Positions 1-45,247 of a stretch of 64,000 nucleotides of DNA are shown piece after piece. Both the position numbers and the translations under genes were made by a program. This stretch comes from an uncultured Gammaproteobacteria bacterium. GTDB lineage: Bacteria > Patescibacteriota > Microgenomatia > PFEM01 > JAPLYW01. How positions within the stretch are numbered: the first letter of the stretch is position 1; every line of letters begins with the position of its first letter. The stretch spans positions 175,701 to 239,700 of the forward strand of contig OZ246397.1 of the NCBI GenBank assembly GCA_965230945.1, read 5' to 3'. The notes beneath the pieces were generated by a model, which made no database searches, was not told the DNA's origin, and saw only the letters and a program-made list of their open reading frames with translations.

Positions 1-415
1 TGTCAATAAATTTTTTTGTAAAATTTGAATTGCAAACAACCGCCTTAATTTTTCTTAATTTAATTCTATTCAGTAAATTTCGACCGTTAACGCCATGGAA
101 AGGAACCTGGAAATGTAAAATATTTGTCTTACTAGGCAGAAAAGGGATACTTCCATCGGAAAGAAAGAAAATCAAATCATATTCTTTCAATCCTTTTTTA
201 CCTATTTTAGAATCTTTATTGAAGATATTGGGAATAAAATTTACTCGTTCAATTTTTATACCCAATCTCTCTTTTATTTTTGGCTTTATCCCTTTATCAT
301 CCCAAAAAACATCAACCTGATAACCATTTTTACTCAAACAATCAGCCACAGTCAAGGCATACCTCTCACCTCCCCCTAAGGTATCTAAATATGGATCGTA
401 AATCGCCGCTTTCAT
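1..415 (-). CDS. glycosyltransferase, group-1 (GT4-like) N-terminal part; gene continues beyond window start
   Basis: Reverse translation from ATG (413-415) gives MKAAIYDPYLDTLGGGERYALTVADCLSKNGYQVDVFWDD..., a typical GT4 N-terminus. No stop codon before position 1. The ORF track missed it because it is open-ended. Confidence 0.5.
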   Translation of the reverse strand, partial: MKAAIYDPYLDTLGGGERYALTVADCLSKNGYQVDVFWDDKGIKPKIKERLGIKIERVNFIPNIFNKDSKIGKKGLKEYDLIFFLSDGSIPFLPSKTNILHFQVPFHGVNGRNLLNRIKLRKIKAVVCNSNFTKKFID

Positions 416-422
416 CTTTTTT

Positions 423-1127
423 CTATTTTTCATTTTTTTCGATAAAAAGATAAATCCGATTGGTAAAATTTTCTTGGCTCTCTGAACCTGAAAAAGGAAA
501 ATAAAATAGGTTTAAAATTAAATTCAATAACTTCTTGGTCAAGTAAAAAATTTTATCTAATTTTGGATTGGGCAATGATTTGATGTCCATCATAGTTAAA
601 AAACGATTGAGACGATAGTCACCTGAATAAAAAAATTTACAAGAGTGTGCTTGAATGTAGTTTTTCAATTCGCTAAAAGCCGGTAACCCCTTTTTAAGAT
701 GTTCCTCAAGAAAATCAGACTTAATACCTTTTTGCTGTAAAAGGGAAAAAAGTTTTTTTTCGGCTTCAATATGCTGTTTGGTTCCTAAGGGGGCTGAAAC
801 AATTACTCTTTTTCTGGCGACTCTCAAAAGCTCCTGAATAAATTTTTTTCTGTCTTTTTTGGACATATGCTCGATAACATCAATACTCGTCACTACGTCA
901 AAAGAATTATCTTTTAAGGGTAATTCTCTGCCGTCAGCCAAGATATCGCCGCTTTTAAGGTTAGTGACAGTGATTTTATTTTTGATAAATTTTCCTAAAG
1001 CATCAACTCCGCCACCAACATCCAAAACTGCTTCACCTGGCTTAATTTTTTTGGCAACCCTTTGATGTCTCTCAAAAACATCAAAGGGTAATAATATTGA
1101 ATTCATCTTTGGTTTTGCAATTCCCAT
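423..1127 (-). CDS. class I SAM-dependent methyltransferase
   Basis: VLDVGGGVDALGKF glycine-rich SAM-binding motif followed by D-x-acidic motifs. The start may be the internal Met at about 1106, which would give a 4-nt overlap with the upstream gene. Confidence 0.6.
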   Translation of the reverse strand: MGIAKPKMNSILLPFDVFERHQRVAKKIKPGEAVLDVGGGVDALGKFIKNKITVTNLKSGDILADGRELPLKDNSFDVVTSIDVIEHMSKKDRKKFIQELLRVARKRVIVSAPLGTKQHIEAEKKLFSLLQQKGIKSDFLEEHLKKGLPAFSELKNYIQAHSCKFFYSGDYRLNRFLTMMDIKSLPNPKLDKIFYLTKKLLNLILNLFYFPFSGSESQENFTNRIYLFIEKNEK

Positions 1128-1867
1128 AATCTGGCATAAATCAAAAACTTATTAAATACCTGAAAAAGACCCTCTATCCAACCTACTACTCCATCGCGCC
1201 AAGCCTGATGTTTAACAAATCTCTGCCAAAATTCGACTGTCATAACTTTTAATATTCGCCACCAAGTTACTGGTGGATGTTTAGCCTTATATAACAATTC
1301 TGCCTCTATCTTAGACCAATCAGAGGTTTTCTTTACCATCAAAGATAAATTCCGATGAGTAATATGAATCATCGGTTGTTTCAAATACCCCAATGCCCCC
1401 TCGAAGACCGGTTCTTCGTGAAGATCTCCTTTCCAACTCTCAAGCTTTCCTCTCCGATAAAGTCTCTTAACATAATCCGGCCACCAGCCACCCCAATGTA
1501 ATTCTTTCCCTAGAAGAAAATTTCTTCTGGGAATGGCATAAGCAAAAAATTCAGGTTTATTAATAACCTCCTCTATTTCTTTTTTCAAATCAGCGGTCAT
1601 TCTTTCATCAGCATCTAAATAAAAAATCCAATCCCCAATCGCCTCTTTAAGACCTTCATTTCTTAATTGAGAGAAGACTGTTTTTTTGGGTAAAGAATCG
1701 ATTCTGACCCCATATCTTTTAGCAATATCAAGAGTTTTATCAGTTGAAGCATCATCAATGACCAAAATCTCATCAGCCCAATTACCGATGGATTTCAAAC
1801 AATCCTCAATCATCTCCTCTTCGTTTCTAGTAATAATTATGACTGATAATTTTTTTTTGCTTTTCAT
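1103..1867 (-). CDS. family 2 glycosyltransferase
   Basis: N-terminal LSVIIITRNEE...DDASTDKT...YLDADE motifs (GT-A fold, DxD). Confidence 0.7.
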   Translation of the reverse strand: MKSKKKLSVIIITRNEEEMIEDCLKSIGNWADEILVIDDASTDKTLDIAKRYGVRIDSLPKKTVFSQLRNEGLKEAIGDWIFYLDADERMTADLKKEIEEVINKPEFFAYAIPRRNFLLGKELHWGGWWPDYVKRLYRRGKLESWKGDLHEEPVFEGALGYLKQPMIHITHRNLSLMVKKTSDWSKIEAELLYKAKHPPVTWWRILKVMTVEFWQRFVKHQAWRDGVVGWIEGLFQVFNKFLIYARLWELQNQR

Positions 1868-2550: not shown

Positions 2551-2556
2551 TTTAAG

Positions 2557-2946: not shown

Positions 2947-2967
2947 CTTTTCTTAATTTTATCATTT

Positions 2968-3882
2968 TTAAGGCTTAAAGCCAGCTTGCCCGAATTTCTT
3001 AAGATAAAAATTTCTAATCCCCAGTTTCTGCCAATGACTACCTTTAAAAAGTATTTTCAAACTTTCCCTGATTAGGGCAAATTTTGTCCTTAAAGAGGCA
3101 TATTTAAAACCGAAGAGTAAGCGGTTACGGGTTAAATAATAATCATGAAGTGGACCACCAACTTCACTGGAGCTGGCATTAAGATGCCAGAGTTTTGCCG
3201 TCGGGGTATAAAAAATTTTAAAACCGGCTTTTTTGGCTCGTTGACAAAAATCCACATCTTCTAAATAAAGAAAATATTTCTCGTCCAAAAAACCGACTTT
3301 TTCAAAAACCTCTTTTTTAATCAGCATGCCGCAGCCAGAGGCAAAATCAACCGGGATTATCTGATTATATTGGCCGTGGTCAACCTCATCAACACCGCGA
3401 TGTGAGGCAATGACATTCTGCCAATCAATTAAACCGCCGGCATACCAGATAACCTTGCCTTTGTCTTTTTCCTGGTATCTTCCTTGATGAAATTCATAGC
3501 CTGGGGCAAAATAAATTTTCGGGGCCAAAATGCCAATCTTCGGATCCTTCTGAGCCGTTTTTAACAATTCCCTTACTAGCTTTTCATCCAAAAAAGTATC
3601 ATTGTTAAGCAGGAAGACGGAAGCAACGCCATCTTTTAAAACCCTTTTAATGCCGAAATTGTTACCGGCGGCATAACCCAGATTTTCCGAAGTTTTAAGA
3701 AAAATAAATTCGGGGAATTTCTTTTTTAAAAAATCAATCTTCTCTAAAGGGTTGTTATTGACAACAATCACCTCAATCTTAAAATCTTTGGTTTCCAATT
3801 GTTTGACTGACTCCAAACAAGCCTCAGTCAATTCCGGCTTGCTGAAATGAAGAATCACTAAACCAACTTTAGTCATCGACAT
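2968..3882 (-). CDS. family 2 glycosyltransferase
   Basis: VIVVNNNP...LNNDTFL...YLEDVDFCQRAKKAGFKIFY, a rhamnosyltransferase-like GT2. Confidence 0.7.
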   Translation of the reverse strand: MSMTKVGLVILHFSKPELTEACLESVKQLETKDFKIEVIVVNNNPLEKIDFLKKKFPEFIFLKTSENLGYAAGNNFGIKRVLKDGVASVFLLNNDTFLDEKLVRELLKTAQKDPKIGILAPKIYFAPGYEFHQGRYQEKDKGKVIWYAGGLIDWQNVIASHRGVDEVDHGQYNQIIPVDFASGCGMLIKKEVFEKVGFLDEKYFLYLEDVDFCQRAKKAGFKIFYTPTAKLWHLNASSSEVGGPLHDYYLTRNRLLFGFKYASLRTKFALIRESLKILFKGSHWQKLGIRNFYLKKFGQAGFKP

Positions 3883-3884
3883 GC

Positions 3885-4769
3885 TTAAATTTTTTTCTTA
3901 ATCTTCAAACGAATTTTTCCGATTAAACCGGAGGCTTTTACCTGCCAATGAAGATAATCGTTAATGTTTTCTTCCAGAACTTCGTCATAGGCGCTGATGT
4001 CCTGTTCAACAAACTTCTCCTTCTCCCAGACTTTGACATACTTGACCATCTCGGAAAAAGCCTGAAGCAAAGCCAAAACCAGACCGTGAAGACCGTCCTT
4101 GTAAGCCTCACCGACAAAAAAACGACTGAGAAACTCGCCCATCGGTTTTTTCAGTATATCCTGCCAGCGAAACTTATAGCCGGTTTTAATTAATTCCTCA
4201 ACCTGGATACCGGTATAACGGTTCATTCTCTCCAGATATTGGGAAACAGATTGATAATGATGATGAACAATGGTATTGGCCTCTTTGGCTTCCAAATCCT
4301 TGCCTTCACCCCGTGTCAAGGGCACGCTGTGGATTCTCTCAGACCACTGAACGCAGCCTTTTTTGAAGAAACGGATATTGTAATCCGGCCACCAACGGGA
4401 ATGTTTCATCCATTTGCCGAAGATAATGTTTTTTCTCGGCAGACAGAAATAGGTTAAACCTTTGTGATCTTCACTTAAATTTTTAATTATTTTAGCCAAG
4501 CTTGGAGGAATTTCTTCATCTGCATCCAAAATTAAAATCCAATCACCGCTTGTTTTGCTGATGGCAAAATTCCTGGCCGGCTCGACATAAGACATATATT
4601 TATAGAAAAAAACTTTTGCTCCCAATTTTTTGGCAATCGCGGCCGTTCTATCTTTAGAATACATATCAATAACGATAATCTCGTCAGCTATTCTTCGAAC
4701 TGATTCTAAACATCTTTTGATGTTTTCTTCTTCATTCCAGGTATTAATGATAACCGAAATTTTAGACAT
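3885..4769 (-). CDS. family 2 glycosyltransferase
   Basis: ISVIINTWNEEENI...LDADEEI motifs. Confidence 0.7.
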   Translation of the reverse strand: MSKISVIINTWNEEENIKRCLESVRRIADEIIVIDMYSKDRTAAIAKKLGAKVFFYKYMSYVEPARNFAISKTSGDWILILDADEEIPPSLAKIIKNLSEDHKGLTYFCLPRKNIIFGKWMKHSRWWPDYNIRFFKKGCVQWSERIHSVPLTRGEGKDLEAKEANTIVHHHYQSVSQYLERMNRYTGIQVEELIKTGYKFRWQDILKKPMGEFLSRFFVGEAYKDGLHGLVLALLQAFSEMVKYVKVWEKEKFVEQDISAYDEVLEENINDYLHWQVKASGLIGKIRLKIKKKI

Positions 4770-4797
4770 AACTTAATTTTGATCCGCCACTTAGCGG

Positions 4798-4880
4798 AGA
4801 AAAACAAGGTTCTGAACTTTGTTCATGGTTCTCATTTGAAAAACAAGGTTCTGAACTTTATTCGTGGTTCTTATTTTATC
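4798..4880. repeat. tandem direct repeat, 2 x about 40 nt at about 85% identity, each unit carrying a GTTC-N-GAAC palindrome
   Basis: Units AAAAACAAGGTTCTGAACTTTGTTCATGGTTCTCATTTG and AAAAACAAGGTTCTGAACTTTATTCGTGGTTCTTATTTT in the only large intergenic gap (4770-4898) of the minus-strand operon. A small hairpin TCCGC-CACTTA-GCGGA lies at 4782-4797. Confidence 0.6.
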
Positions 4881-4898
4881 AAAAAGGGCCTAAAAGAG

Positions 4899-6452
4899 CT
4901 AATTTTCAAGCCGATAAATTTTTACCTGATAATCGGTATCCCATTTTTGGCTGATTTTTTTGGGACGGAAAGAAGTAATTTCCCAAACGGAATAATTAAT
5001 AGTTTCTGAATCACCTTTATCACTAATGACATAAAGAATTTTAGCCTCAGGGTAAACCTCAACACTCATTGGCTTTTGACCTAAAACATTTAAAAAATAG
5101 CGATAATAAATCGCTCGGGTATTACCATCAACAATATTGGCAATGTTAAATTTATTTTGAAAATTATTTTGAGAAACATCATTGGCAATAATCATGGCAA
5201 TTTGTTTGGCACCTTGAAGGTTAACATTATTAAAATCAATCGAAATTTTTCGATTGACTATTTGCCAATCTTTTTTAAAAGCCGATAAAGATAGCACTAT
5301 AAAAAATGAAAAGAAAATAACCAAAAAAACATATCTTAATAAATGATTAAAACTGGCTAATTTTTCGATTATTTTTTGAGTAAAAAAAACAAGAAAAATA
5401 ACTAAGATTGGTAAAAGCGGCAATAGATAACGATCCTCAATACGTTCTTTTTGAAACTGGCCGAAGATTGAGGCAAAAAACAAACCCAAAAACAAACCGA
5501 CGGTTAAAAATAAAATTATTTTTCTTTCCTTATGTCTTTTATCAATTAATAAAAAAATCAGGAGGGCGGCAAAAATAAAAACGCTAATCAAGCTGATTAT
5601 CGAATGGCTTTTCTCCATGAAAAGAATTGAATACTGCTCAAAACCGAAAAATCTTCCTATAAGAATTCTTAAATAACTAAAAATTCCGTTTAAGGAAAAC
5701 CAAAAGTTGCCACTACTAACCGTCAAGTTCCTAATGGTACTTTTTGTCAGGAAAAAATTATGTCTTATCTCAAAAATAATTATCGGTAAGATACCAAAAA
5801 TAAAACCTAAACCCCAAAGAAAAAGACGAGAAAGTATTTTTTTAGTATTAAAAATAAAAAGGCCGATCAGTAGTGAAAGAATTATTCCCAGAGAAACGTA
5901 GTGAAGCTGAAAGAGACAACCAGATAAAAAACCCAAGACAAAAAGCCAAAACCATTTTTTCCTTTGAAGATATAGGCTCAAGAAAAATAAAATCAAAACA
6001 GTAAAAAAGGGTAAAAAATTTGGGTTCCAAGGGAAACGACTATATTCAACTGTCAAAGGTGAAATCAAATAGAAGAAAAAACCAAAAAGGGCCAGCCAAT
6101 GGTTAGTAACGATTTTCCTTAAAAAAAGAAAAAATAAAATGGCGCCCAAAAAACTAAAAAAGGCCGTTAAAATCGCCGGACCCAAAGGATCAAGGCGACT
6201 CAATAATAAGGCTGGGGCCACTAAATAATAATAAAGGGGGCCGAAATAAGTTTCTAAAGGGCTATTAAGGCCAAAAGAGGTTTGTGGTCCTAATAAGGTT
6301 AATTTCCCCTCGACAATCATTTGTCTAACAACCTCCATATCTCGAGCCACGTCATAAAAAAAGTTTTGTGTAGCCCTCAGTCGATAGAAATTTAAAAAAA
6401 GCCCTAAAAGAATAACAAAAGTAAAAAGAAGCCAATAGATTTTCTTATTCAT
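4899..6452 (-). CDS. GT-C fold glycosyltransferase, ArnT/PMT-like (GT39/GT83 family)
   Basis: Polytopic membrane protein with an N-terminal YRL...D..RD loop motif, FYDVARDMEVVRQMIVEGKLTLLGPQTS.... Paralogous to 13706..15229 and 15226..16779. Confidence 0.6.
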   Translation of the reverse strand: MNKKIYWLLFTFVILLGLFLNFYRLRATQNFFYDVARDMEVVRQMIVEGKLTLLGPQTSFGLNSPLETYFGPLYYYLVAPALLLSRLDPLGPAILTAFFSFLGAILFFLFLRKIVTNHWLALFGFFFYLISPLTVEYSRFPWNPNFLPFFTVLILFFLSLYLQRKKWFWLFVLGFLSGCLFQLHYVSLGIILSLLIGLFIFNTKKILSRLFLWGLGFIFGILPIIIFEIRHNFFLTKSTIRNLTVSSGNFWFSLNGIFSYLRILIGRFFGFEQYSILFMEKSHSIISLISVFIFAALLIFLLIDKRHKERKIILFLTVGLFLGLFFASIFGQFQKERIEDRYLLPLLPILVIFLVFFTQKIIEKLASFNHLLRYVFLVIFFSFFIVLSLSAFKKDWQIVNRKISIDFNNVNLQGAKQIAMIIANDVSQNNFQNKFNIANIVDGNTRAIYYRYFLNVLGQKPMSVEVYPEAKILYVISDKGDSETINYSVWEITSFRPKKISQKWDTDYQVKIYRLEN

Positions 6453-8307
6453 TCGTTTTCATTTTAAAAATTTTAACTAAATCGTTTTCAAAGATTTTAT
6501 TAAAGCCAATTTGCGATTCAGCAACTTCTAATTTCTGTTCTTCAACTAAGTAAAGATATTTTATCTTATTCTTGTCAAGGAATTTTTTAGCCTCATTAAC
6601 ACTTTTTGTCTTGAAAAATTTTTCAATCTCTTCTCTCCTGACCCGCCAGGGAACCTGCATGATTTCCAAAGTCATTTCATCCTCCAAAAAAGTTTGTTTA
6701 TCCCCAAAAGCAGAGACATAAGCAGTAGTTTCATAAATATAAAGCGGTTGAGGTGTTTCTTTGGTTTTTTCTCTTGCCCGATAATTATGAGGATAAGTTA
6801 AAACAATACCCGCCGATTGTTCTCTTAGAAATTCCAAACCTTCAAGTTCCTGAAAGTCAATCTTGGCTGGCGACTGATAACCAAGATAGTTCTTTAAATC
6901 CCCGATCGTCGTTGGTAAAGTCAAAAGAAGCAGTAAAGCAATAAAAAGGCTTTTGAGCCAAATTCTCTTCCTAGATAGGAAGTTAGCCAACCATAAACCA
7001 GCCAGCAAACCAAAAAGAAACTGAAAATAATAAAAAAACTGAATGCTATTCCAAGGATTTCCTTTTTGGATAAAAAACAAGGGAATCAGACCACTTGGTA
7101 ATAAACAGGCCAAAAAAAGAACTTGAAAAGAACTAATTTCCCGCCAATTTTTAAACCAATGGCAAAGCTTACCCAAACCAATGATTCTTGTTCCCAAATT
7201 ACCGATAAAGAAAATGGCTAGACCTAAACCTTCAGCTAGCAACCACTTTAACCAAAGACCGGTGGCAAAATAGGCCTGTCGAGCCTGAGCCAGTCGTAGC
7301 CAACCAACACGGTCAGGGGCGTCAATCATCACCCGAGGCAACCATAAAGGAGAAAAAACAAAAAGCGAGGATGAGGCCCAATTATTAGGCAAAAAAACCA
7401 ATAAACTAACCACCAGACTTCCCAAAAAAACTTTGAAGGTCTTCAATTTTTTCTTAGTTATCAATTCCCAAAAAGTGGTTGCTCCTAAACCAGAAAGAAT
7501 AATAATCCCTCCATAGGCTTTAATGCCAATAATCAAGCCAAAAATAAAACTTAAAAACCAGAGCTTTTTCCCAGATGGTTTTTCAAGATAATTTAAATAA
7601 AGATAAAAACCATAAAGCATTAAAATTAAAGAAAGAAAAAACTGCAAGTTAAGCGGAAAAGAGATTGATTGATTAGCCCAAAACATTGATTCCCCACTTA
7701 AACCTTGACGACGTAATAAGGTTACTAACCAACCGAAATTACCGCCAAAATAGGCAAAAAAGACAGACAGACAAGCAGCCAAATTATTCTTAGTCAGTTT
7801 TTTGATTAAAAGAAAAACCAAAATTCCCAAAAAACCGGAAAGAATAATGGGAATAATTTGAAAATAAAGATTAAGAGTCGGCAGAAAAGTAATTTTATGG
7901 ATTAAAGCCACTGACAAATCAAATAAAAAGTGGTAGTTTTTTAAATTAAAATGAGCCAGGATAGGATTTTGGAGAAGAGAGAAAAAATCTCCAGAAAATC
8001 TAAGATGTCTGGCCAAACTATTAATTAAAGCCAGATGCCAAACACCGTCATGACCATTCGGCCCCCAAAAACCCATCCCATATGAATATAAAAGCCCGCT
8101 TTTGATCGTGGTTAAACTCTGGGTAATCATGCCAAAAAACATAATTAAAACCAGCCATTTGTGCAAACGTAAAGCAAAAAACAAAAACCCCAAAAAGATT
8201 AAGGCCATTAGAAGAAAAACTAATGGCGAAGTTTCAAAAGGTAAAGAATTGGCGATTCCTTGGAAATTAACGATTCTTGAAAGCATAAAAGAGTTTTTTA
8301 ACATCAA
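6445..8307 (-). CDS. polytopic membrane protein, probable GT-C type glycosyltransferase
   Basis: About 14 predicted TM helices, a GPNGHDGVWH motif and a soluble C-terminal domain. The start is uncertain; an internal Met at about 8286 is possible. Confidence 0.45.
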   Translation of the reverse strand: MMLKNSFMLSRIVNFQGIANSLPFETSPLVFLLMALIFLGFLFFALRLHKWLVLIMFFGMITQSLTTIKSGLLYSYGMGFWGPNGHDGVWHLALINSLARHLRFSGDFFSLLQNPILAHFNLKNYHFLFDLSVALIHKITFLPTLNLYFQIIPIILSGFLGILVFLLIKKLTKNNLAACLSVFFAYFGGNFGWLVTLLRRQGLSGESMFWANQSISFPLNLQFFLSLILMLYGFYLYLNYLEKPSGKKLWFLSFIFGLIIGIKAYGGIIILSGLGATTFWELITKKKLKTFKVFLGSLVVSLLVFLPNNWASSSLFVFSPLWLPRVMIDAPDRVGWLRLAQARQAYFATGLWLKWLLAEGLGLAIFFIGNLGTRIIGLGKLCHWFKNWREISSFQVLFLACLLPSGLIPLFFIQKGNPWNSIQFFYYFQFLFGLLAGLWLANFLSRKRIWLKSLFIALLLLLTLPTTIGDLKNYLGYQSPAKIDFQELEGLEFLREQSAGIVLTYPHNYRAREKTKETPQPLYIYETTAYVSAFGDKQTFLEDEMTLEIMQVPWRVRREEIEKFFKTKSVNEAKKFLDKNKIKYLYLVEEQKLEVAESQIGFNKIFENDLVKIFKMKTNE

Positions 8308-9742
8308 CCATCAAAGATTTCCCGACCATTAAAAAAACCAAACCGCCATAAAACAAACCACCGATAAAAATCAATAAAATTAAGCTGAAAATATTTAACG
8401 GCAAAAAATTTCTTAAAAAGAAAAGGCCAAAACCCATCGCCAGACAACCAATAGTGGGTTTTAGTAAAGGAGCAAAAAAATCAAAATCAATATATTTCTT
8501 GGTCAACCAAATGGCAATCGCCGAGCTAAAAGAAACCACAGCAGCTCCCAAAGCCACTCCGTTAAAGCCATATTTAATGGCTAAAACCGGGTAAATAATC
8601 CAGGTTAAAACTGTCCACATCACCATTAGTTTAAAAACGATTTTAATTTTGCCAACCGCGGTTAAAGCGTTCATTAAAGGCGTCGTTACGGCCGCCCAAA
8701 AACTGTTAACTAAAAAAAGATACAAAGCCACTAAAGCCACCTCCCACTTGCTGTATTTAGGAATCAAATGAACTAGAGGTTGGGCTAAAACACTAATTCC
8801 CACCAAAAGCGGAAAAATAATTAAGCCCAGAAAAAACAGCGTTTTCTCGATTGCCTTTTTTAATTCTTTTTTATCGGTTTGCATCCGGGCATAAGCCGGA
8901 AAGGTCACCTTCATCACTGCATCCATGACAAAACGGAGAGGCATTTGGGCCCATTTTTGCGCCCAACCCAAAATACCCACCCCAGAAGCGCCAACAATTT
9001 TCCAAAGAAAAACATTCATTAACCGGTCTTTAATTACCGCCAAAAAGGTGTTAGCTTGATAAGGAACCCCGAATCGCAAAAGATGACGCAGGGATTCTTT
9101 CTCAAAAGCAAAACCAATCCGCCAAGGAGAGATAATATAAATTAAAATTACCCCCACCATCCCCCTTAGTAAAACTGCCCAGGCATAACTAACCACCCCA
9201 AAACCTTTCCAAGCCAACAAGACAGCCGCCCCATAGAAAAGAATTGACTCTACTATTTCTACTATTACAAGCAGATCAAAACGTAACTTCCGCTCTAATA
9301 AAATCGAGGGGATGGTCTTTAAGGAAGCCAAGAAAAAGCCAAAAGTTAATGCCCATAAAAGAAAAACGCCAGGCTGGGTAATATGATAAAATTGACGAAG
9401 CCAAGGCGTAAGAACCAAAACCAAGGAGACCAGAGTTAAAACTAATGCTTGTTGGATAGTGAAAGTGCTCCGAATATCCTTAATTGTCGGTTTTTCTTTC
9501 TTTTGAATTAAAGCACCAGCTAAACCAATATCGGAAAAATAGCCTAAAATGGCCACTAACTCAGAGATGGCAAAAAAGAGTCCAACCTCTGCTTTCCCTA
9601 GAAAAATAGTTAAGAGAAAAAAACCGGCAAAGGAAATTATCTGAAGAAGAAAAGTTCTTCCAGTTAAAGCAGCAATCCCTCTAATCGCCCGTCCCTTAAC
9701 CGTCGCCAAATCAATCTCAGGTACCCTTGTTAGCTCTACCAT
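8267..9742 (-). CDS. Wzx-like polysaccharide/oligosaccharide flippase (MOP superfamily)
   Basis: N-terminus ...VKGRAIRGIAALTGRTFLLQIISFAGFFLLTIFLG is typical of polysaccharide biosynthesis flippases. Polytopic (about 12-14 TM by eye). Confidence 0.65.
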   Translation of the reverse strand: MVELTRVPEIDLATVKGRAIRGIAALTGRTFLLQIISFAGFFLLTIFLGKAEVGLFFAISELVAILGYFSDIGLAGALIQKKEKPTIKDIRSTFTIQQALVLTLVSLVLVLTPWLRQFYHITQPGVFLLWALTFGFFLASLKTIPSILLERKLRFDLLVIVEIVESILFYGAAVLLAWKGFGVVSYAWAVLLRGMVGVILIYIISPWRIGFAFEKESLRHLLRFGVPYQANTFLAVIKDRLMNVFLWKIVGASGVGILGWAQKWAQMPLRFVMDAVMKVTFPAYARMQTDKKELKKAIEKTLFFLGLIIFPLLVGISVLAQPLVHLIPKYSKWEVALVALYLFLVNSFWAAVTTPLMNALTAVGKIKIVFKLMVMWTVLTWIIYPVLAIKYGFNGVALGAAVVSFSSAIAIWLTKKYIDFDFFAPLLKPTIGCLAMGFGLFFLRNFLPLNIFSLILLIFIGGLFYGGLVFLMVGKSLMVDVKKLFYAFKNR

Positions 9743-12970: not shown

Positions 12971-13709
12971 ATTTCCTCTTTAAATCATTAATTTTAACTC
13001 TTAAAATTTCTATCAGCATCTCCTTTGACTCTTTGAAATATTTCTTTTCTTTCCTCACATCTTTATCTTCCCAGTCAACAATGACTTCGGCTATTCGATA
13101 ACCCTTTTTTTGCGCGATAAAAAGCAATTCCACGTCAAAAGCCCCTACTTTCCAACCTTGAGTTTTTTTGGCTTCTTTGAAAATCAACAAGCGGGAAAAA
13201 AGGTCTTTGGCAACCCTGTTTTTAAAAGCCTTAAAACCGCATTGAGTATCAATAATGTTTTTTAAAAGAAGTTTTTGTCTTACTAAACGAAAGACGTTAG
13301 AACCAACTAATCTTAGAAGAGAGAAACCTTCTCTCTTTTCGCCGCGAGAACCGATAACAACCTCAAATCCTTTTTCAAAAAAGGGTAAAAGTTTAGCTAA
13401 TTCACGAATAGGAGCTGATTGATCCATATCGGTAAATAAAATTATTTCACCTTGGGCTTTTTGTACACCCGCCCTGATGGCAAAAGGTTTACCGGCATGT
13501 TTGTTTTGAAGAAGTTTAAAACGGGGATGAAGTTCGAGGTAGTTTCTGATAAATTCCAAACTTCCATCAGTTGATTCATCATCGGAAATAATTACTTCAC
13601 TTTGATATTTTTGCTTTTGCAAATAATTCTCCACCTCATCCAGAACGCCTCTTTTGAGATTTTTTTCTTCGTTGTAACAGGGAATAATTACTGATAAAAA
13701 GGGTCTCAT
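12960..13709 (-). CDS. GT2 polyprenyl-phosphate glycosyltransferase (DPM1/ArnC-like)
   Basis: LSVIIPCYNEEKNL...ISDDESTDGS...DMDQS motifs. Overlaps the downstream GT-C gene by 11 nt. Confidence 0.7.
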   Translation of the reverse strand: MRPFLSVIIPCYNEEKNLKRGVLDEVENYLQKQKYQSEVIISDDESTDGSLEFIRNYLELHPRFKLLQNKHAGKPFAIRAGVQKAQGEIILFTDMDQSAPIRELAKLLPFFEKGFEVVIGSRGEKREGFSLLRLVGSNVFRLVRQKLLLKNIIDTQCGFKAFKNRVAKDLFSRLLIFKEAKKTQGWKVGAFDVELLFIAQKKGYRIAEVIVDWEDKDVRKEKKYFKESKEMLIEILRVKINDLKRKYDN

Positions 13710-15229
13710 TTGTTTTTCCTCAATCTTCTTTCCACCGTCACGCCACCGAATTTTTGACTTTTAACCGTTTCGGCAATTTCATCCTGCCTGGCCAGCCAAG
13801 CGTCTAAGAAAAAGGGGTGTTCTAAATCCACTTCATAAAGAGTATACAAGAGTGGCACATTTTCCACCACTGGTTGGTAATGGTAGACTCTTTCTCCCCG
13901 CCATTTAAATAAATATTCATAAGCATAAGGAATCACCGGCGGAACATAAACATCAACATTAAAGTTTTCTTCCTTGGCATCTTCATAAATCCAGTCAACT
14001 GACTGCAATTGATTGCCTAAAGTGATATGGGTTGGGCCGTCAACACCGGCAGATAAATAATTTTTCAAAAAGGGCAGATTAAAATAGGCAAACCAGAAAA
14101 TAATCAGGGCAAAAAGCGGCCAGTAAATTTTTTTCTTAAATAAAAAGGCCACAAAAAGGGCAAAAAGAAGGATAAAAGCTGGGAAAAAACCGGTGAGGTA
14201 ATAATCATAAAGCTGGCCATAATTACCGACAAAAAACAACAAAAAGAAAAGGGGGACAAAAAGAAAAATCAGCAAAATTAGAATCATTGAATTTTCTTCG
14301 CTTTTTCTTTTAATAGCCAGCGGCAGTTTAAAGATTAAAAAGATTAGCCATAGGGCAGATAAAAATTTAGAACCATATGACGGGTTAGTCTCTAATTTTG
14401 AAAAGAAGATATTAAAGTAGGCAAAAATTCTTTCTTTGATAAATTCTAAGGTTGGTAAAGCCCAAGTTTTGGCTATATCTGTATTAATCCCTCCCCTGCT
14501 GAAGCTGAAAAAATTTCTAGTCATTAAAAATTTATTCTTCACCTCAAATAAGGCTTGAGGTACCAAAAAGGCAAGGAAAATCCCTATCGCCCAGAAAAGA
14601 TTTTTTTTACTTTTTATTTTTGGCCGGAAAATCAGCCACATTAAAGCGATTGAGGGAATAAAGAAAATGGCACTCGCCATTTCCAATTGTAAAGAAACCG
14701 CCAAACATAAAGAAACCAAAATTAGATATTTATCTTTCTTTTGAAGAAAAAATCTCCCCAAACCATAAAGTAACAAAATGGTAAAAAAGGGTACCGGCGA
14801 AGGGTTAGAAAGCCAACGGGCCGAAAGAGTCAAATAATAAGAAAAGCCCCAGAAAAAAGCCGCTAGCAAACCAACCCTCCGGTTGTAAAATTCCTTTCCT
14901 AACCAATACATTAAAAAAACCGCCCCGACGTCAAAAAGGGCCACAAAACTCGCTGCCACCGTCGGATTACCTCGTCCGATAAAATAAAAAGGGGTCAAAA
15001 AATAAAACCAGAAAGGGCCTAAAAACAAACCGGCAATCCCTGTCGTTGGACCAATAGCCGGAAAATCCTTTAAAGCCAGAATTTCCTGGACTTTTAAAGC
15101 ATCGCGACCTTGATCATAATAAAAACCCAAAAGAGCATCAACCCGATAAAGACGAAAAAAGACAGAGGCCAGAATAATCACCAGCAGTAAAAAATAAACA
15201 ATTTTGTTTTCTTTAATTTCTTTTTTCAT
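13706..15229 (-). CDS. ArnT/PMT-like GT-C glycosyltransferase
   Basis: FRLYRVDALLGFYYDQGRDALKVQEILALKDFPAIGPTTG... Paralogue of 4899..6452 and 15226..16779. Confidence 0.6.
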   Translation of the reverse strand: MKKEIKENKIVYFLLLVIILASVFFRLYRVDALLGFYYDQGRDALKVQEILALKDFPAIGPTTGIAGLFLGPFWFYFLTPFYFIGRGNPTVAASFVALFDVGAVFLMYWLGKEFYNRRVGLLAAFFWGFSYYLTLSARWLSNPSPVPFFTILLLYGLGRFFLQKKDKYLILVSLCLAVSLQLEMASAIFFIPSIALMWLIFRPKIKSKKNLFWAIGIFLAFLVPQALFEVKNKFLMTRNFFSFSRGGINTDIAKTWALPTLEFIKERIFAYFNIFFSKLETNPSYGSKFLSALWLIFLIFKLPLAIKRKSEENSMILILLIFLFVPLFFLLFFVGNYGQLYDYYLTGFFPAFILLFALFVAFLFKKKIYWPLFALIIFWFAYFNLPFLKNYLSAGVDGPTHITLGNQLQSVDWIYEDAKEENFNVDVYVPPVIPYAYEYLFKWRGERVYHYQPVVENVPLLYTLYEVDLEHPFFLDAWLARQDEIAETVKSQKFGGVTVERRLRKNK

Positions 15230-16779
15230 TGGTTAGGATAATTATGAATCAATTTATAAACGTCTACTCCTTCAATTTGCCATTTTTCGGCAATCTTTGT
15301 CCAGCCGAACATGGCAATTTCGGCTTTAGGATGGTAAATCGGCTGGCAAGATGCTTGTTCACAGATGACAAAAAGCTGCTGGGTAATGGTTTCTTTGGCT
15401 TTTTCCGGTTCGATTCTTGTTGGCGGTTTACCCCACTTTTCCATAAAAAAAGCATAAGCCTCATCGTAATTCCTTTCCGCCACCAAAGCCAGATTAAAAG
15501 GTTTACTTCCAGTCTTATCCAGAATAAAACGGGCGATAACCTGGGTTCTTTGTAACTGTCGGGCCGGCGGATAACGCAAGGGTGATTCTTTGACCGCCAG
15601 AAAAACCAAAAAACCAATAATCAATAAAGTAAAAAGCTTCCTCCAAATTTTTCCCACCCAAATCATGCCCAAAAACCAGCCGACCAACAAAAAAGGAACT
15701 GGAAAAAAGAAACCGAAATAATGGTCATAAATAGGCTGTTTGTAGTTGCCCAAACCAAACAAACCAACCAAAAACCAAACCAGAATTAAGAATAAACCGG
15801 CGTTTCGGGTGATAAAACGATGCCAGTCAGTCAATAAATTCTCTCTGATGACTTTCAAGCCCACTATTAGACTCATTATCAAAGCTAGCCATCTTCCCCA
15901 GTAAACATCTTTCCCAGCCACCAGGCGGGTGAAAACTTCTTTGGTCAAAAGCCATAAATGAGGAATAGCTTTGTAAATTTTAAAGTTGACTGTTTCCTGA
16001 GAATCGGTAAAGAATTTTTTGAAAGCCTGGTAGTTAATAAAACCATGACGCAGATCAAACCAAACCAAAGGGGTCACGGTTAAAAAAAGAAAAATAATTA
16101 AAGCCCAAAAGCTGTGAAGCCCAAAACGTTTGGCTGGTTGTTTACTCCTTTTCAGTTCAAGGAAAGTCATCAGCCAAAAAAGACCAATGGTTGGCAGCAG
16201 CAACAAACCAAGCCAATGGGATTGTAAGGCAAAAGAAAGGGACACACCGAGAACCGGCAGCCACCAAAATTGTTTTTTTTGCCAAACTCGCCAAAGACCG
16301 TAGATCGAAAGAAGAGCAAAAAAGGGCATGACGTTAGGATTCCAAGAAGAACGAGAATAAATAATGACAACTGGTGAGATGGCATACAAAAAAGAGGCGA
16401 TGATTGCTCCTTTTTTGCCGACCCATTCCCGGCCGAAAAAATAAATCAGGGCAGTAGTTGTAATCCCCAAAAGCGCCACCAGCGCCGCCGGACCGACCGG
16501 CGAAAGACGGAAGACAGCCATAGCCGGCAACATTAAATAATAATAAAGGGGGCCTAAATACATATTGCCGACGGAAGTCACCGGTCCGATTAAGCGAAAC
16601 TTATAGTCAACAATCATCCGCTTGACCGCCAGGGCATCGCGCCCTTCATCGCCTAAAAAAGCCATGTACTCCGGTAAGCGCCAGAAACGCAAAAAAGCGG
16701 CCACAACAAGAATTAAAAGTAATATCAATAAATAATTGTTTTTCCTTAAAAATTTCATCCTTATCTTAATTTTCTCCAA
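15226..16779 (-). CDS. ArnT/PMT-like GT-C glycosyltransferase
   Basis: FLRFWRLPEYMAFLGDEGRDALAVKRMIVDYKFRLIGPVTS.... 4-nt overlap with the next gene. Confidence 0.6.
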   Translation of the reverse strand: MEKIKIRMKFLRKNNYLLILLLILVVAAFLRFWRLPEYMAFLGDEGRDALAVKRMIVDYKFRLIGPVTSVGNMYLGPLYYYLMLPAMAVFRLSPVGPAALVALLGITTTALIYFFGREWVGKKGAIIASFLYAISPVVIIYSRSSWNPNVMPFFALLSIYGLWRVWQKKQFWWLPVLGVSLSFALQSHWLGLLLLPTIGLFWLMTFLELKRSKQPAKRFGLHSFWALIIFLFLTVTPLVWFDLRHGFINYQAFKKFFTDSQETVNFKIYKAIPHLWLLTKEVFTRLVAGKDVYWGRWLALIMSLIVGLKVIRENLLTDWHRFITRNAGLFLILVWFLVGLFGLGNYKQPIYDHYFGFFFPVPFLLVGWFLGMIWVGKIWRKLFTLLIIGFLVFLAVKESPLRYPPARQLQRTQVIARFILDKTGSKPFNLALVAERNYDEAYAFFMEKWGKPPTRIEPEKAKETITQQLFVICEQASCQPIYHPKAEIAMFGWTKIAEKWQIEGVDVYKLIHNYPNQ

Positions 16780-17474: not shown

Positions 17475-17529
17475 AAGTATAGCATAAAAAATTATTTTTT
17501 AGAATTGATTTATGCTATTATAGATATTA

Positions 17530-18687
17530 ATGAAAAAATCCGGACGAGATTGCCTTTTAATCGCTTTTGTCTCTCTGCTTTCTACTTTTTTCATTTGGCT
17601 TCCTTTTTTCCTAAGGTTATCCAGTTTTTGGAAAATGCCGCTGCCGGGTGAAGGAATGGCAACGATTATGAAAAACTTTGACGGGCTTTATTATGTAGTC
17701 ATCGCCAAGTCTTTTTATCACCCAGAGATAATTAACAACCTTTTTTCTTTCCCCTTACCAGCCATTTATTATACAGCTCATTTCCCTCTTTATCCGTTAT
17801 TAATTAAACTTTTTTCTCCAATTTTTGGCTATCTTTGGTCAATGCTTTCCATTACTCTCATTTCTTCTACTCTAGCCGCTGTTGTTTTTTATCTGTTTGT
17901 TAAAGAATTTAAATATTCCAAATCAGTCCTCTGGCTGACTTTTGTCTTTCTTCTTTTTCCCGCTCGCTGGTTGGTAGTCCGCTCAGTTGGCTCACCTGAA
18001 CCTTTGTTTATTCTGCTTATTTTAACTTCTTTTTTCTTTTTTAAGAAAAAAAATTATTGGCTGGCGGGGATTTTCGGAGCTTTAACCCAACTAACCAAAC
18101 CGCCGGGAATTTTACTCTTCCTGGGCTATACAGCCTTCCTTTTGGTGGAAAACTGGCCGGAATTAAGAAAAAGGGCAATGACTACTCTAGTTAATCTTTT
18201 CAAGAAAGCTTATCCTCTGCTTTTAATTCCTTTAGCCTTGCTTTGTCTCTTCACCTACTATCGTTTTGCCTACGGTGATTTTTGGGCTTACTTTCATTCC
18301 GGTATTAATGTTCATCCTATTTTTTGGCCACCTTTCCAGGTTTTCAATATCAGTGCCCGTTGGGTAGGAACTTTTTGGTTGGAAGAGATTATCTATGTTT
18401 TCCTTTTGGGAATTTTGGGAGTTGTTTATCTTTTCAAACAAAAACGCCTTGATTTAGGAATTTTTACAGCGGTTTTCTTTCTCAGTACCTTGTTTGTCGC
18501 CCATCGTGACATTTCACGCTATAGTCTGCCATTAGTACCCTTTTTGTTAATTGCTTTTGAGCCGTTTTTAATTAAGAAAGAATTTAAAATTGCTTTTGCC
18601 GTTATTCTTTTGCCGATTTTCCTTTATGCTATTAACTTTCTCGCCGGCAATACCTTGCCCTTAGCCGACTGGGCACCATTTTTATAA
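17530..18687 (+). CDS. polytopic membrane protein (possible mannosyltransferase-like)
   Basis: 385 aa, about 11 TM helices. Divergently transcribed from the glycosylation array. No diagnostic motif recognised. Confidence 0.4.
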   Translation: MKKSGRDCLLIAFVSLLSTFFIWLPFFLRLSSFWKMPLPGEGMATIMKNFDGLYYVVIAKSFYHPEIINNLFSFPLPAIYYTAHFPLYPLLIKLFSPIFGYLWSMLSITLISSTLAAVVFYLFVKEFKYSKSVLWLTFVFLLFPARWLVVRSVGSPEPLFILLILTSFFFFKKKNYWLAGIFGALTQLTKPPGILLFLGYTAFLLVENWPELRKRAMTTLVNLFKKAYPLLLIPLALLCLFTYYRFAYGDFWAYFHSGINVHPIFWPPFQVFNISARWVGTFWLEEIIYVFLLGILGVVYLFKQKRLDLGIFTAVFFLSTLFVAHRDISRYSLPLVPFLLIAFEPFLIKKEFKIAFAVILLPIFLYAINFLAGNTLPLADWAPFL

Positions 18688-18694
18688 AAGAAAA

Positions 18695-19867
18695 TTAGCC
18701 AAGTTTTTCTTGAAGTTTCTTTAAGAAGGGAATTTTCCAGCTTTTCCAAATAAAGATATTATACATAGAATAGTTATAAGGGATAACGAAAAAGGCAATG
18801 GCAATTATCAAATAAAGCTGGCGGTATTGGTCACCAAAGAACTTTGCTAAAAGACCTACCACCACTCCTTGAATTAAAACCGCCCCTAGAGAAGTAAGAT
18901 TAAACTGGAAGAATTTCCAAATAATCTTTTTAAAACCAGTAATCTTTTCCTTACCAAAGGTCCAAACATTATTTAAAGTAAAATTAGAGATAATGGCCAA
19001 CTCCGCTCCTAAAGCAGCCGCTATACCAGGCATTAACCCTAATCTGTAAAAACCCTCTAACCCTAAAGCATTAATCAAATAACCAATAAAACCAACTGTA
19101 GCAAATTTTAAAAATTTAAGCGTTTTAGGATCAGTTAATCTAATGATAATAATGGCAATAAAAGTACCTATAACGGTACTAAAAGGCATTTTCGTCTCTC
19201 CCGCTTCTCTTAACCTAAACTGAAGAGGAATTTCTATTACTTTCACACCTTCTAGATTAACAATCTGATAAAGCATCTGTGTTTTGTAATAAAAACCTTC
19301 AGAAATCCTATTAAAGTCAACCTTATCCAAAACCCCTTTTATTCTGGTTAGCTTAAGACCAGTACTTACATCTTTAACTTTGTTAATATGAGGAAAAAAG
19401 AGCACAGCCCGAGAAAACAAACCGCCATATTTAGTCAAAAAATTACGATAGAAGCCCCAATCTTCAGGAATTGAACCACCTTTGACAAAACGAGAACCAA
19501 TAACATAATCATAACCTTCGTTAAACTTTTTAACCAAGTCAATAATATGTTTTGGATCATGTTGAAAATCGGCATCAAACTCAATCACGGCATCGGCTTT
19601 CATCTCTTTCATGGCATAATTCATGCCTCTTTGATAAGCGGCCCCTAAACCCTGCCTATTACCTAAAGAAAGAATGACATTAGAATATCTCTTCATCTTT
19701 TCTTTAACTATATCTGCCGTCCCATCAGGAGATTTATCATCAACAACTAAAACCTCCATTTGAGTATCCTTGATCTGAGGGAAAACTTCTTCTTCTAAAA
19801 CATCGATCATACGACCAATGTTTTCTTTTTCATTATAAGTGGGAATGATGACAACAACTTCTTTCAT
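18695..19867 (-). CDS. GT2 glycosyltransferase fused to C-terminal GtrA-like membrane domain (polyprenyl-phosphate hexose synthase)
   Basis: VVVIIPTYNEKENI...VVDDKSPDGTADIV...DADFQHDP, then four C-terminal TM helices as in GtrA/DPM synthase fusions. Confidence 0.7.
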   Translation of the reverse strand: MKEVVVIIPTYNEKENIGRMIDVLEEEVFPQIKDTQMEVLVVDDKSPDGTADIVKEKMKRYSNVILSLGNRQGLGAAYQRGMNYAMKEMKADAVIEFDADFQHDPKHIIDLVKKFNEGYDYVIGSRFVKGGSIPEDWGFYRNFLTKYGGLFSRAVLFFPHINKVKDVSTGLKLTRIKGVLDKVDFNRISEGFYYKTQMLYQIVNLEGVKVIEIPLQFRLREAGETKMPFSTVIGTFIAIIIIRLTDPKTLKFLKFATVGFIGYLINALGLEGFYRLGLMPGIAAALGAELAIISNFTLNNVWTFGKEKITGFKKIIWKFFQFNLTSLGAVLIQGVVVGLLAKFFGDQYRQLYLIIAIAFFVIPYNYSMYNIFIWKSWKIPFLKKLQEKLG

Positions 19868-25613: not shown

Positions 25614-25638
25614 CAAAAAAACCGGATTTAATCCGGCT
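25614..25638 (-). terminator. rho-independent terminator after the ftsEX-M23 operon
   Basis: Minus strand CCGGA-TTAAA-TCCGG hairpin plus a U7 run. Nearly identical to the galE terminator. Confidence 0.55.
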
Positions 25639-44104: not shown

Positions 44105-44130
44105 AAACTTAAAGGAAGGAGATGGGCTAA

Positions 44131-45123: not shown

Positions 45124-45247
45124 AATTAAGCCAAAAACTGAATATTAACAAACGAGACCACTTCGTGGAAAACTATAATCTTTTTTGATTATAAACCCCC
45201 ACGCAGTGGTCTTTTCTTATAGAAAATAAAAATTAAAGTCCTATAAG

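Follow-up and report, generated by a model that had tools for sequence, protein, structure and literature searches.

A conserved glycosyltransferase cluster of the Microgenomates as a probable two-stage pathway for envelope-glycan assembly

The window analysed in this study is a stretch of 64,000 nucleotides of contig OZ246397.1 (positions 175,701 to 239,700; assembly GCA_965230945.1), from an uncultured bacterium of the class Microgenomates, and its left end is occupied by a large glycosylation locus. The products of this locus include three putative polyprenyl-phosphate sugar synthases (P1, P2 and P3), a Wzx-type flippase, several cytoplasmic glycosyltransferases and seven membrane proteins resembling the glycosyltransferases of the C fold (GT-C). 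This cluster very probably builds a complex cell-surface glycan, and we consider it reasonably probable that the locus is the core, lineage-wide, two-stage envelope-glycan assembly line of the Microgenomates. These bacteria form a large uncultured class with genomes smaller than 1 Mb, and we know of no experimental work on their envelope glycans.

The conservation of the locus was assessed with 80 genome loci centred on the GT-C gene C1a and 80 metagenome loci centred on the gene for a 620-residue membrane protein, U620. A common gene order is shared by approximately 160 loci, in which the proteins are 40–60% identical. It runs from P3 and the opposite-strand gene M385 to P1, C1a, C1b, sometimes an extra C1 gene, P2, C2, one to three copies of C3, Wzx and U620. 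Downstream of U620 the order continues with an optional C1c (with or without a glycosyltransferase of family 2, GT2), the GT2 genes g2b and g2rha, an optional Dgk and PAP2 pair, the GT2 gene g2a, an optional methyltransferase gene, a GT4 gene, an optional gene for a 420-aa protein weakly matching GT87, and a YfhO-family gene. Named genomes with the locus belong to the Woese-, Shapiro-, Ames-, Blackburn- and Daviesbacteria, and the names attached to homologues are those of Patescibacteria, Shapirobacteria, Woesebacteria and Microgenomates. Metagenome contigs of the Logan and JGI collections likewise contain the DNA of the window itself. With a length of about 23 kb, the locus takes up about 3% of the genome (complete relatives, 0.82–0.90 Mb).

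In a neighbour-joining tree, C1a, C1b, the extra C1, C1c and C2 form separate clades, each of which spans many lineages. Thus, the paralogues arose before the class radiated and each has been preserved in its own right, which points to many distinct retained specificities, as would be expected for the synthesis of a defined complex glycan. The first-pass annotation had treated the degree of paralogue stacking as an oddity of this genome; instead, the same ordered stack is the norm across the Microgenomates, each paralogue in a clade of its own, and GT-C stacking is a class-wide core trait. The same data bear on whether the locus might be a horizontally acquired, strain-variable island of the capsule or O-antigen type. 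The presence of Wzx and the mixture of GT2 and GT4 genes do resemble such islands, but the gene order is kept in about 160 loci at the identities given above, the paralogues fall into orthologous clades, and the GC content of the cluster (0.34–0.40) is near that of the rest of the window. The flanks, moreover, consist of housekeeping genes (TrmD, RF2, SecA, SerRS, class-I LysRS, Lon, FtsEX with a PcsB-like M23 peptidase, GluRS, MltG and a D-Ala-D-Ala carboxypeptidase), and among the 53 loci with enough flanking sequence TrmD is syntenic upstream in 39. On account of synteny, flanks and GC content this explanation is rejected as highly improbable.

Many of the related records are titled "uncultured Gammaproteobacteria bacterium" (binchicken metagenome-assembled genomes, MAGs; e.g., L002, L005, L006 and L008), Clostridia or Alphaproteobacteria. 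These records bear a Microgenomates-type locus at 45–63% identity, and their titles probably reflect mislabelled taxonomy.

Family assignments were made by Pfam and NCBIfam searches of the open reading frames (ORFs) of the window. Five of the seven GT-C-like proteins were recognized by family match, one by its modelled fold (U620) and one through its orthologues (M385), and all seven contain a conserved Asp after the first transmembrane (TM) helix. All are encoded on the minus strand with the exception of M385. C1a (15226–16779; 517 aa) matches PMT (E value 1.6e-8; 34.8 bits) and PMT_2 (E value 4e-9). Its AlphaFold2 (AF2) model, with a pLDDT of 84 and a pTM of 0.84, retrieved with Foldseek AglB (E value 2.5e-7) and ArnT (E value 5e-7; TM-score 0.54), as well as ALG12, Pmt4 and PglB, the highest TM-score being that to ALG12 (TMt 0.57). 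C1b (13706–15229), which matches PMT_2 (E value 2e-6; 28.4 bits), is a paralogue of C1a with 30% identity (blastp E value 3e-38; hhalign probability 100%). A third member of the C1 family, C1c (4899–6452; 517 aa), has a PMT_2 match just below the gathering threshold (E value 4.6e-5; 24.1 bits) and is also clearly related to C1a (blastp E value 5e-41), the three C1 proteins being 28–30% identical to one another in pairwise comparison. C2 (11420–12970; 516 aa) matches PMT_2 (E value 1.4e-12; 48.6 bits) and PMT (E value 1e-7), and C3 (9717–11423; 568 aa), which occurs in one to three tandem copies among relatives, matches PTPS_related (E value 3.6e-7) and, just below the gathering threshold, PMT_2 (E value 1.4e-5; 25.8 bits). 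M385 (17530–18687, plus strand) is a short membrane protein of 385 aa with about eight TM helices and a weak PMT match of its own (E value 0.003). Among 25 orthologues, PMT_2 is matched in nine (best E value 2e-8) and PMT in three, and M385 has in addition a below-cut-off match to the NCBIfam glycopolymer family AZOBR_p60025 (E value 2.7e-11). The gene was left uncounted in the first-pass annotation, and is found in 67 of the 80 genome loci, on the opposite strand in every one.

The relationship among these families is supported by profile–profile comparison, in which hhalign linked C1a and C1b with C2 and C3 at probabilities of 92–100% (C1a–C2, 97.7%; C1a–C3, 97.4%) and C2 with C3 at 76%, while the Wzx family, included as a control, remained below 2% against every GT-C family. 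An acidic motif, which stands just behind the second TM helix in U620 and just behind the first in the others, is kept at 90% or more within each family. It takes the form F41-x-G43-D44-E45-G46-R47-D48 (invariant) in C1a, D39-Q-G-R42-D43 (conserved) in C1b, D46-E47 (invariant) in C2, H39-D40-D41 (conserved) in C3, N49/D51/G52 (invariant) in M385 and H86-D87-G88 (invariant) in U620; the C1c sequence has D34 followed by R37-D38. The D-E pair that characterizes loop 1 of the PMT/GT39 enzymes is present in C1a and C2, and is altered to D-Q in C1b and to D-V in C1c. Sequence and profile searches of C1a, U620, M385 and C2 against PDB chains returned only a marginal match to Pmt4 (E value 0.03). Since these searches gave no alignment with a solved ArnT or PMT structure at the level of residues, the equivalence of these motifs to the catalytic loop is positional and derives from predicted topology. 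With this qualification, an acidic loop motif is present in all families, and the profile links and predicted folds identify the paralogues as related GT-C enzymes, in agreement with the first-pass annotation. The fold and profile results also rule out that the large membrane proteins are transporters.

The sugar donors for these enzymes would be provided by P1, P2 and P3, which are putative polyprenyl-phosphate sugar synthases encoded on the minus strand (Glycos_transf_2 E values 1e-27 to 1e-33). P1 (16761–17474; 237 aa) is a soluble, DPM1/GtrB-type GT2 without TM helices (Glycos_transf_2 E value 9e-33) whose best PDB relatives are GtrB sll0501 (E value 6e-18), ArnC (E value 1.5e-13) and the dolichyl-phosphate mannose (Dol-P-Man) synthase of Pyrococcus (E value 8e-12). 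P2 (12960–13709; 249 aa) is a second soluble protein of DPM1 type, also TM-less (Glycos_transf_2 E value 2e-27), closest to Dol-P-Man synthase (E value 3.6e-13) and ArnC (E value 3.5e-12), and is found in 75 of the 80 genome loci. In P3 (18695–19867; 390 aa) the GT2 domain (Glycos_transf_2 E value 4e-27) is followed by a C-terminal GtrA-type domain of four TM helices (GtrA_DPMS_TM E value 1e-14). Its NCBIfam matches to PgfS, ArnC and PpgS are partial and all below cut-off, and a P3 gene lies at the equivalent position in 64 of the 80 genome loci. The genes are arranged as two tandem modules in which a synthase precedes its transferases, P1 with C1a and C1b and P2 with C2 and C3, together with a divergent third pair formed by P3-GtrA beside M385. 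Of the three modules of GT2 and GT-C originally proposed, the two with P1 and P2 stand; the third, placed at 4899–6452, does not, since the GT2 adjoining C1c (g2b, 3885–4769) resembles GmaR and SunS rather than a polyprenyl-phosphate synthase. In this genome C1c has no adjoining synthase; among relatives, the next gene after C1c often encodes a P1-like GT2 of approximately 300 aa.

The pairing of synthase and transferase is reinforced by gene fusions. P1 and C1a are fused in frame into proteins of 720–745 aa in about 10 of the 80 genome loci (L006, L048, L058, L060, L070, L072, L075, L078, L080 and L081 carry a GT2–GT-C fusion of this size) and in five of the 120 best homologues (P0014, P0016, P0018, P0106 and P0108). 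The fused protein P0014 is 73% identical to the C1a of the window, where P1 and C1a are split, and fused and split states alternate among close relatives within the window's own lineage. A second kind of fusion joins a GT2 to a multi-TM domain in proteins of 703–713 aa that have a D-D motif after the first TM helix and precede Wzx (L020, L103, L110–L112 and L120). The two kinds, in each of which a DPM1-type GT2 is joined in frame to a GT-C-like domain with multiple TM helices, are independent of each other. The N-termini of GT-C enzymes are cytoplasmic in ArnT, PMT and oligosaccharyltransferase (OST). A fused GT2 would therefore face the cytoplasm, the site of the nucleotide sugars, and the recurrence of fusions argues that the neighbouring GT-C serves each TM-less synthase as its membrane anchor and its partner.

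The resemblance of these pairs to ArnC and ArnT raises the question of whether the target of the locus is lipid A or a different membrane lipid. The PDB searches with P1 and P2 returned ArnC, ArnT ranks near the top of the fold matches for C1a, and homologues are called "L-Ara4N transferase-like" by JGI. However, the ArnC model of NCBIfam (PRK10714) scores just 55–69 bits where 529 is the cut-off, no equivalog match to ArnT was obtained, and neither ArnA/B/D-type enzymes nor lipid A genes were detected among the scanned ORFs of the window. To our knowledge, Microgenomates have been described as lacking lipopolysaccharide. A role of this kind has very little probability, and the label "ArnC/ArnT-like", if taken as family membership, has to be withdrawn in view of the NCBIfam scores and of the lack of L-Ara4N pathway genes among those ORFs.

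The gene for U620 (6445–8307, minus strand) directly follows that for Wzx in nearly all of the loci that are long enough to show it; the exceptions are L143 and L151, with a C1-like gene between the two, and L063, which has a U620-like ORF without a Wzx match. Neither U620 nor any of 42 homologues has a robust match in Pfam or NCBIfam, there being only scattered chance matches at E values up to 1. The assignment to GT-C comes from the AF2 model (pLDDT 86.9; pTM 0.89), for which Foldseek returned STT3 (E value 2e-9), DPY19 (3e-7), AglB (1e-6), PglB (1e-5), AftA (3e-4) and ArnT (2e-2). The top 19 matches are all STT3, AglB, PglB or DPY19 (E values 2e-9 to 8.5e-5), with TM-scores of about 0.5, and all 28 matches at a probability of 1.00 are GT-C enzymes, the first protein outside this class having a probability of 0.12 or less. 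The C-terminal part is an extracytoplasmic alpha/beta domain that weakly matches the globular domain of AglB. At the same time, the motif WWDYG/WWDxG is absent from the U620 sequence and from the conserved columns of the family, and the STT3 model of Pfam is matched in none of 43 members. Lacking WWDYG, U620 is not a member of the STT3/AglB/PglB family. Its own family is large, comprising 1685 clusters at 50% identity with an E value of 1e-3 or better, 937 of which are at 1e-30 or better. The homologues, one of which (P0121) is 100% identical, are all annotated as hypothetical, and every named one comes from Patescibacteria or from a probably mislabelled MAG. About half of the relatives have an extra N-terminal signal peptide and a soluble domain of about 400 aa, which shows no homology to the GT87-like gene or to any protein of the cluster; three of these long forms have a precomputed Pfam match to DUF3863. 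Its OST-like GT-C fold and coupling to the flippase make U620 the best candidate for handling a flipped glycan linked to a lipid diphosphate.

These features might suggest a bacterial counterpart of the N-glycan logic of the eukaryotic endoplasmic reticulum (ER), in which an oligosaccharide on a lipid diphosphate is flipped, extended outside by the GT-C series with donors from DPM1/ALG5-like GT2s, and then transferred en bloc to protein by U620, as an OST-fold family without WWDYG. The best structural matches of U620 (STT3, AglB and PglB, E values 2e-9 to 1e-5), its weakly AglB-like C-terminal domain, its position after a MOP-family flippase, the TM-less state of P1 and P2, as in DPM1, and the top TM-score of C1a to ALG12 all agree with such a route. 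Against it are the absence of WWDYG and of an STT3 Pfam match, the modest TM-scores of U620, its match to AftA, an enzyme with a glycan acceptor, and the fact that Foldseek ranks inside the GT-C superfamily do not tell donors apart. En bloc transfer to protein by U620 is accordingly regarded as improbable, and assembly of an envelope glycan remains the reading that we prefer.

Candidate enzymes for the cytoplasmic part of envelope-glycan assembly are encoded in the remainder of the array, all on the minus strand. Wzx (8267–9742; 491 aa, about 12 TM helices) is a flippase of the MOP family (Polysacc_synt_3 E value 6e-49; NCBIfam MOP flippase E value 2e-41, below cut-off). The product of g2b (3885–4769; 294 aa) is a GmaR/SunS-like GT2 (Glycos_transf_2 E value 4e-26) with GmaR (E value 7e-19) and a ThuS/SunS-type enzyme (E value 3e-10) as PDB relatives, and in most loci its gene follows U620, either directly or after the C1c insert. 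The product of g2a (1103–1867; Glycos_transf_2 E value 1e-24), which is kept in relatives, is a paralogue of g2b with 34% identity (blastp E value 1.6e-42) and presumably also GmaR/SunS-like. The GT2 encoded by g2rha (2968–3882; 304 aa) is of the rhamnosyl- or galactofuranosyltransferase type, with a below-cut-off match to the NCBIfam rhamnosyltransferase TIGR01556 (E value 7e-24) and a GlfT2-type galactofuranosyltransferase as PDB relative (E value 7.6e-7). To judge from their sequences, g2b, g2a and g2rha are ordinary cytoplasmic transferases. In one relative, an alpha-L-rhamnosidase-like glycoside hydrolase of 778 aa is inserted between g2b and the rhamnosyl-type GT2 (L116:3365-5698), which hints at rhamnose as a component of the glycan. 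Two genes may serve the lipid carrier, one for a DgkA-type lipid kinase (2557–2946; 129 aa, 3 TM helices; DAGK_prokar E value 4.5e-29) and one for a PAP2 phosphatase (1864–2550; PAP2 E value 1.5e-20), a candidate polyprenyl-diphosphate phosphatase with below-cut-off NCBIfam matches to the undecaprenyl-diphosphatase SepP (E value 1.2e-11) and to the YbjG type (E value 5e-7). This pair occurs at the cluster position only in the closest relatives (L085–L095). The array is completed by a methyltransferase dependent on S-adenosylmethionine (SAM) (423–1127; 234 aa; Methyltransf_11 E value 3e-10), which partially matches the oligosaccharide methyltransferase MftM (E value 1.8e-13), and by the N-terminal part of a GT4 (1–433; translation MKNRKKMKAAIYDPYLDTLGGGERY...) that is cut by the edge of the window; the full GT4 on contig L082 (372 aa) matches Glycos_transf_1 (E value 1.6e-19) and Glyco_transf_4 (E value 1e-8). 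The first-pass inventory of a Wzx, three other GT2s, a PAP2 beside a DgkA, a SAM methyltransferase and a GT4 was thus essentially right, as judged by Pfam and NCBIfam.

From the gene content, domain families, GT-C folds, conserved motifs, synteny and fusions described above, we propose a pathway in which the donors, the order of action, the flipping steps and the acceptor would be as follows. In a first stage, at the cytoplasmic face, the GT4, g2a, g2b and g2rha, with the methyltransferase, would assemble an oligosaccharide attached to polyprenyl diphosphate as the carrier, after priming by an enzyme encoded elsewhere. Wzx would flip the lipid-linked oligosaccharide, and U620 would then act on the flipped, lipid-linked glycan. 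In a second stage, P1, P2 and P3-GtrA would each charge polyprenyl phosphate with one sugar, and these donors would be flipped, one candidate flippase being the GtrA domain of P3. At the outer face, C1a, C1b, C1c, C2, C3, M385 and YfhO would each add a defined residue from the polyprenyl-phosphate sugars, so that seven to ten GT-Cs would elaborate the glycan outside from three donors. Regeneration of polyprenyl phosphate would fall to PAP2 and DgkA. The end product is most likely a glycopolymer anchored in the wall or the membrane, by analogy with the logic of mycobacterial arabinogalactan and lipoarabinomannan (AG/LAM) and of the decoration of streptococcal rhamnopolysaccharide; the number of individually conserved GT-Cs would fit a complex glycan of defined structure, like the AG/LAM of mycobacteria. 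The general idea of the first-pass annotation, that several lipid-linked sugars are made inside and moved by outer-face GT-Cs, is thereby retained, with the Wzx branch and the carrier enzymes as part of the scheme.

The acceptor might alternatively be protein. In O-glycosylation of the Ppm1/Pmt type, or in the style of the Pgf system of Streptococcus mutans or the GT39 enzyme of Caldicellulosiruptor, the GT-Cs would directly glycosylate Ser/Thr residues of linkers rich in Pro and Thr (PT-rich) with sugars from polyprenyl-phosphate donors, a scheme which we regard as less likely but as a serious rival. The acceptors would be proteins that are secreted or anchored at the surface, pilins among them, and the remaining transferases would elaborate the glycan. 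C1a, C1b and C2 exceed the Pfam thresholds for PMT or PMT_2, C1a and C2 have the D-E motif, and P1, P2 and P3 partially match PgfS. Just upstream of the cluster are genes for a CAP-domain protein with a TP-rich linker (21477–22445), syntenic in 23 of 53 loci, and for a secreted LTD-domain protein (24783–25616, minus strand), a candidate acceptor on circumstantial grounds (LTD E value 8.6e-7, below gathering) with a C-terminal TM anchor and a PT-rich linker of about 45 aa, PTPTPTPTSTPIPSPSPTSKPLTPTSTKTPTPTSTVTPKTTTPT, in which Ser, Thr and Pro make up 87% over 30 aa. Between them is a gene for an epimerase, an enzyme also encoded in pgf, which is syntenic in 25 of 53 loci. In Caldicellulosiruptor, PT linkers are reported to be glycosylated by a single GT39 enzyme (PMC6151902), which counts for this alternative. 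On the other hand, known bacterial O-mannosylation requires one synthase and one Pmt, and direct O-glycosylation accounts neither for the seven to ten ancient, conserved GT-Cs nor for the four Leloir transferases of the Wzx branch. Many secreted proteins have PT-rich linkers, so that proximity is weak evidence; Pfam scans of the cluster detected no MIR or other peptide-binding domain; and the long forms of U620 have a secreted N-terminal domain, matching DUF3863 in three of them.

Concerning the layout of the locus, the ORF listing shows 16 co-directional, mostly overlapping genes on the minus strand from position 17474 to position 1, unbroken to 423 and then ending in the edge-cut GT4 (433–1). 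The 17.5-kb co-directional array of the first-pass annotation is therefore real and tightly packed, but its length was underestimated, as it extends at least 3.3 kb beyond the left edge of the window. This can be followed on contig L082. Its genes are those of the left end of the window (the copy of 1103–1867 translates identically), and beyond the edge it continues with the complete GT4, a remnant ORF of 102 aa and a GT-C of the YfhO family that is at least 503 aa long. The remnant (L082:7974-8282) lies where relatives have a gene for a membrane protein of about 420 aa with a weak GT87 match (E value 1.6e-3), between GT4 and YfhO. It matches only the C-terminal 60 residues of that protein, and is apparently what a deletion in this strain has left. 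The junctions between neighbouring genes had been given as mostly overlaps of 4–26 nt; most do overlap, but the measured values are overlaps of 4–41 nt or gaps of 2–21 nt, with the single exception of a 129-nt gap (4770–4898). A promoter and terminator scan of the region gave match counts equal to the shuffled expectation, with one suggestive pair, at this gap, where a terminator-like hairpin (4912–4887, minus strand) is directly followed by a promoter-like site (4882–4855). The gap may be a boundary between two transcription units, but such matches are at chance frequency overall. Scans for tRNA genes and Rfam families gave no match inside the cluster.

Several points weigh against the envelope-glycan pathway as proposed. 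No priming phosphoglycosyltransferase of the Bac_transf or MraY type, Wzy_C, Wzz or LytR-CpsA-Psr (LCP) protein was found in the locus or among the scanned ORFs of the window, and with priming enzyme, Wzy, Wzz and LCP ligase all missing there, the Wzx branch is incomplete as seen. All NCBIfam equivalog matches are far below their cut-offs, so the identities of the sugars are not readable from sequence. M385 is classified as GT-C-like from sequence matches, and U620 is a candidate user of the Wzx product by virtue of adjacency and predicted fold only. The operon structure is inferred from gene spacing alone, the promoter and terminator matches being at chance level. Finally, the PT-rich secreted proteins beside the locus would fit a protein acceptor equally well.

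The closest parallels are the three-component and other multi-component transmembrane glycosylation systems of Gram-positive bacteria, such as CsbB/GtcA/YfhO, GacI/J/K/L and the Csd pairs of L. lactis (PMC8035078; PMC11127046). They likewise combine a GT2 that makes a polyprenyl-phosphate sugar, a flippase of the GtrA or Wzx type, and a multi-TM GT-C, of the PMT_2 or YfhO family or unassigned, whose outer loop bears an acidic motif. In the present locus the corresponding elements are the GtrA domain of P3 and Wzx, at the E values already given, and the multi-TM GT-Cs with their acidic outer-loop motif, identified by Pfam and, for C1a and U620, by AF2 and Foldseek. The TM-less P1 and P2 also have a precedent in GacI, a soluble GT2 which needs the membrane partner GacJ. 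The Gram-positive systems, however, mostly occur as scattered single pairs, and the polymer that they decorate is produced elsewhere, whereas here three synthases and seven to ten GT-Cs are gathered in one class-wide locus, with recurrent synthase–GT-C fusion and with an OST-fold GT-C coupled to Wzx.

In mycobacteria and corynebacteria, AG, lipomannan (LM) and LAM are made by enzymes that include Ppm1, PpgS/Rv3779, GlfT2, AftA–D, Emb and PimE/Mpt. The likeness consists in a lineage-conserved envelope cluster and in a glycan begun by cytoplasmic GT2s and elaborated outside by paralogous GT-Cs with polyprenyl-phosphate sugars, and AftA (by fold, for U620) and a GlfT2-type enzyme (by sequence, for g2rha) are among the matches. 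The differences are that no genes of the decaprenylphosphoryl-arabinose pathway (UbiA, DprE1/2), LCP ligase or PimA/B-type genes were detected, that AftA, AftD and Emb are matched at fold level only (10–15% identity), and that the genome concerned is smaller than 1 Mb, unlike those of mycobacteria. With STT3, AglB and PglB, U620 shares the predicted fold, the Asp of the first outer loop, the C-terminal alpha/beta domain and the coupling to a MOP/Wzx flippase, but it differs from them in the missing WWDYG motif and STT3 Pfam match and belongs to a separate, unmodelled family. With Ppm1/Pmt (GT39) and the Pgf system of S. mutans, the locus has in common PMT/PMT_2 GT-Cs with the D-E motif in loop 1 beside GtrB/DPM-type synthases, and an epimerase gene and PT-rich surface proteins nearby, but here there are far more GT-Cs and a Wzx branch, and the PgfS matches in NCBIfam are far below cut-off. 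With the Wzx/Wzy-dependent pathway it shares Wzx; the priming enzyme, Wzy and the chain-length regulator were not found in the locus or in the scanned ORFs.

Among the neighbouring genes, the epimerase noted above (22717–23757, minus strand; Epimerase E value 1.8e-54, GDP_Man_Dehyd E value 1.7e-49) is an NAD-dependent sugar epimerase/dehydratase that is loosely associated with the locus and possibly supplies a nucleotide sugar. Farther into the window, a plus-strand region (43544–45964) encodes two paralogous small secreted proteins (43544–44104 and 45413–45964) with the common N-terminus MKKK...AFGA.G.NAWF.DQ, the second of which has a camelysin/Peptidase_M73 match; between them is encoded a Peptidase_S24-like protein (44131–45123) whose C-terminal tail is very acidic, and the whole looks like a secreted-fibre cassette of the TasA/SipW type. 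The window also encodes a class-I lysyl-tRNA synthetase of archaeal type (tRNA-synt_1f) together with a separate class-II synthetase of the D/K/N type (35181–36746 and 61535–62989, both minus strand). A B12-binding radical SAM enzyme (46335–47576, plus strand) lies among small unannotated ORFs, one with a weak tetraspanin-like match (47751–48500) and two without family match (48653–49582 and 49845–51014).

A literature search, the coverage of which was incomplete, found no description of this locus or of GT-C enzymes in Patescibacteria. The building blocks are known, and it is the class-wide mega-locus, the recurrent synthase–GT-C fusions and the unmodelled OST-fold family coupled to Wzx that appear to be undescribed. 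Because the gene order is kept across the class, the locus would represent a core envelope pathway with a role comparable to that of the mycobacterial arabinogalactan/LAM clusters. P1 and C1a would constitute a natural, and sometimes fused, synthase–transferase pair, and U620 stands for an extensive GT-C family, as yet without annotation and with a predicted fold like that of OST, which merits a family model. For the Microgenomates as a whole, the locus would serve as a class-wide marker for how episymbiotic, ultra-small bacteria build the surface with which they contact their hosts.

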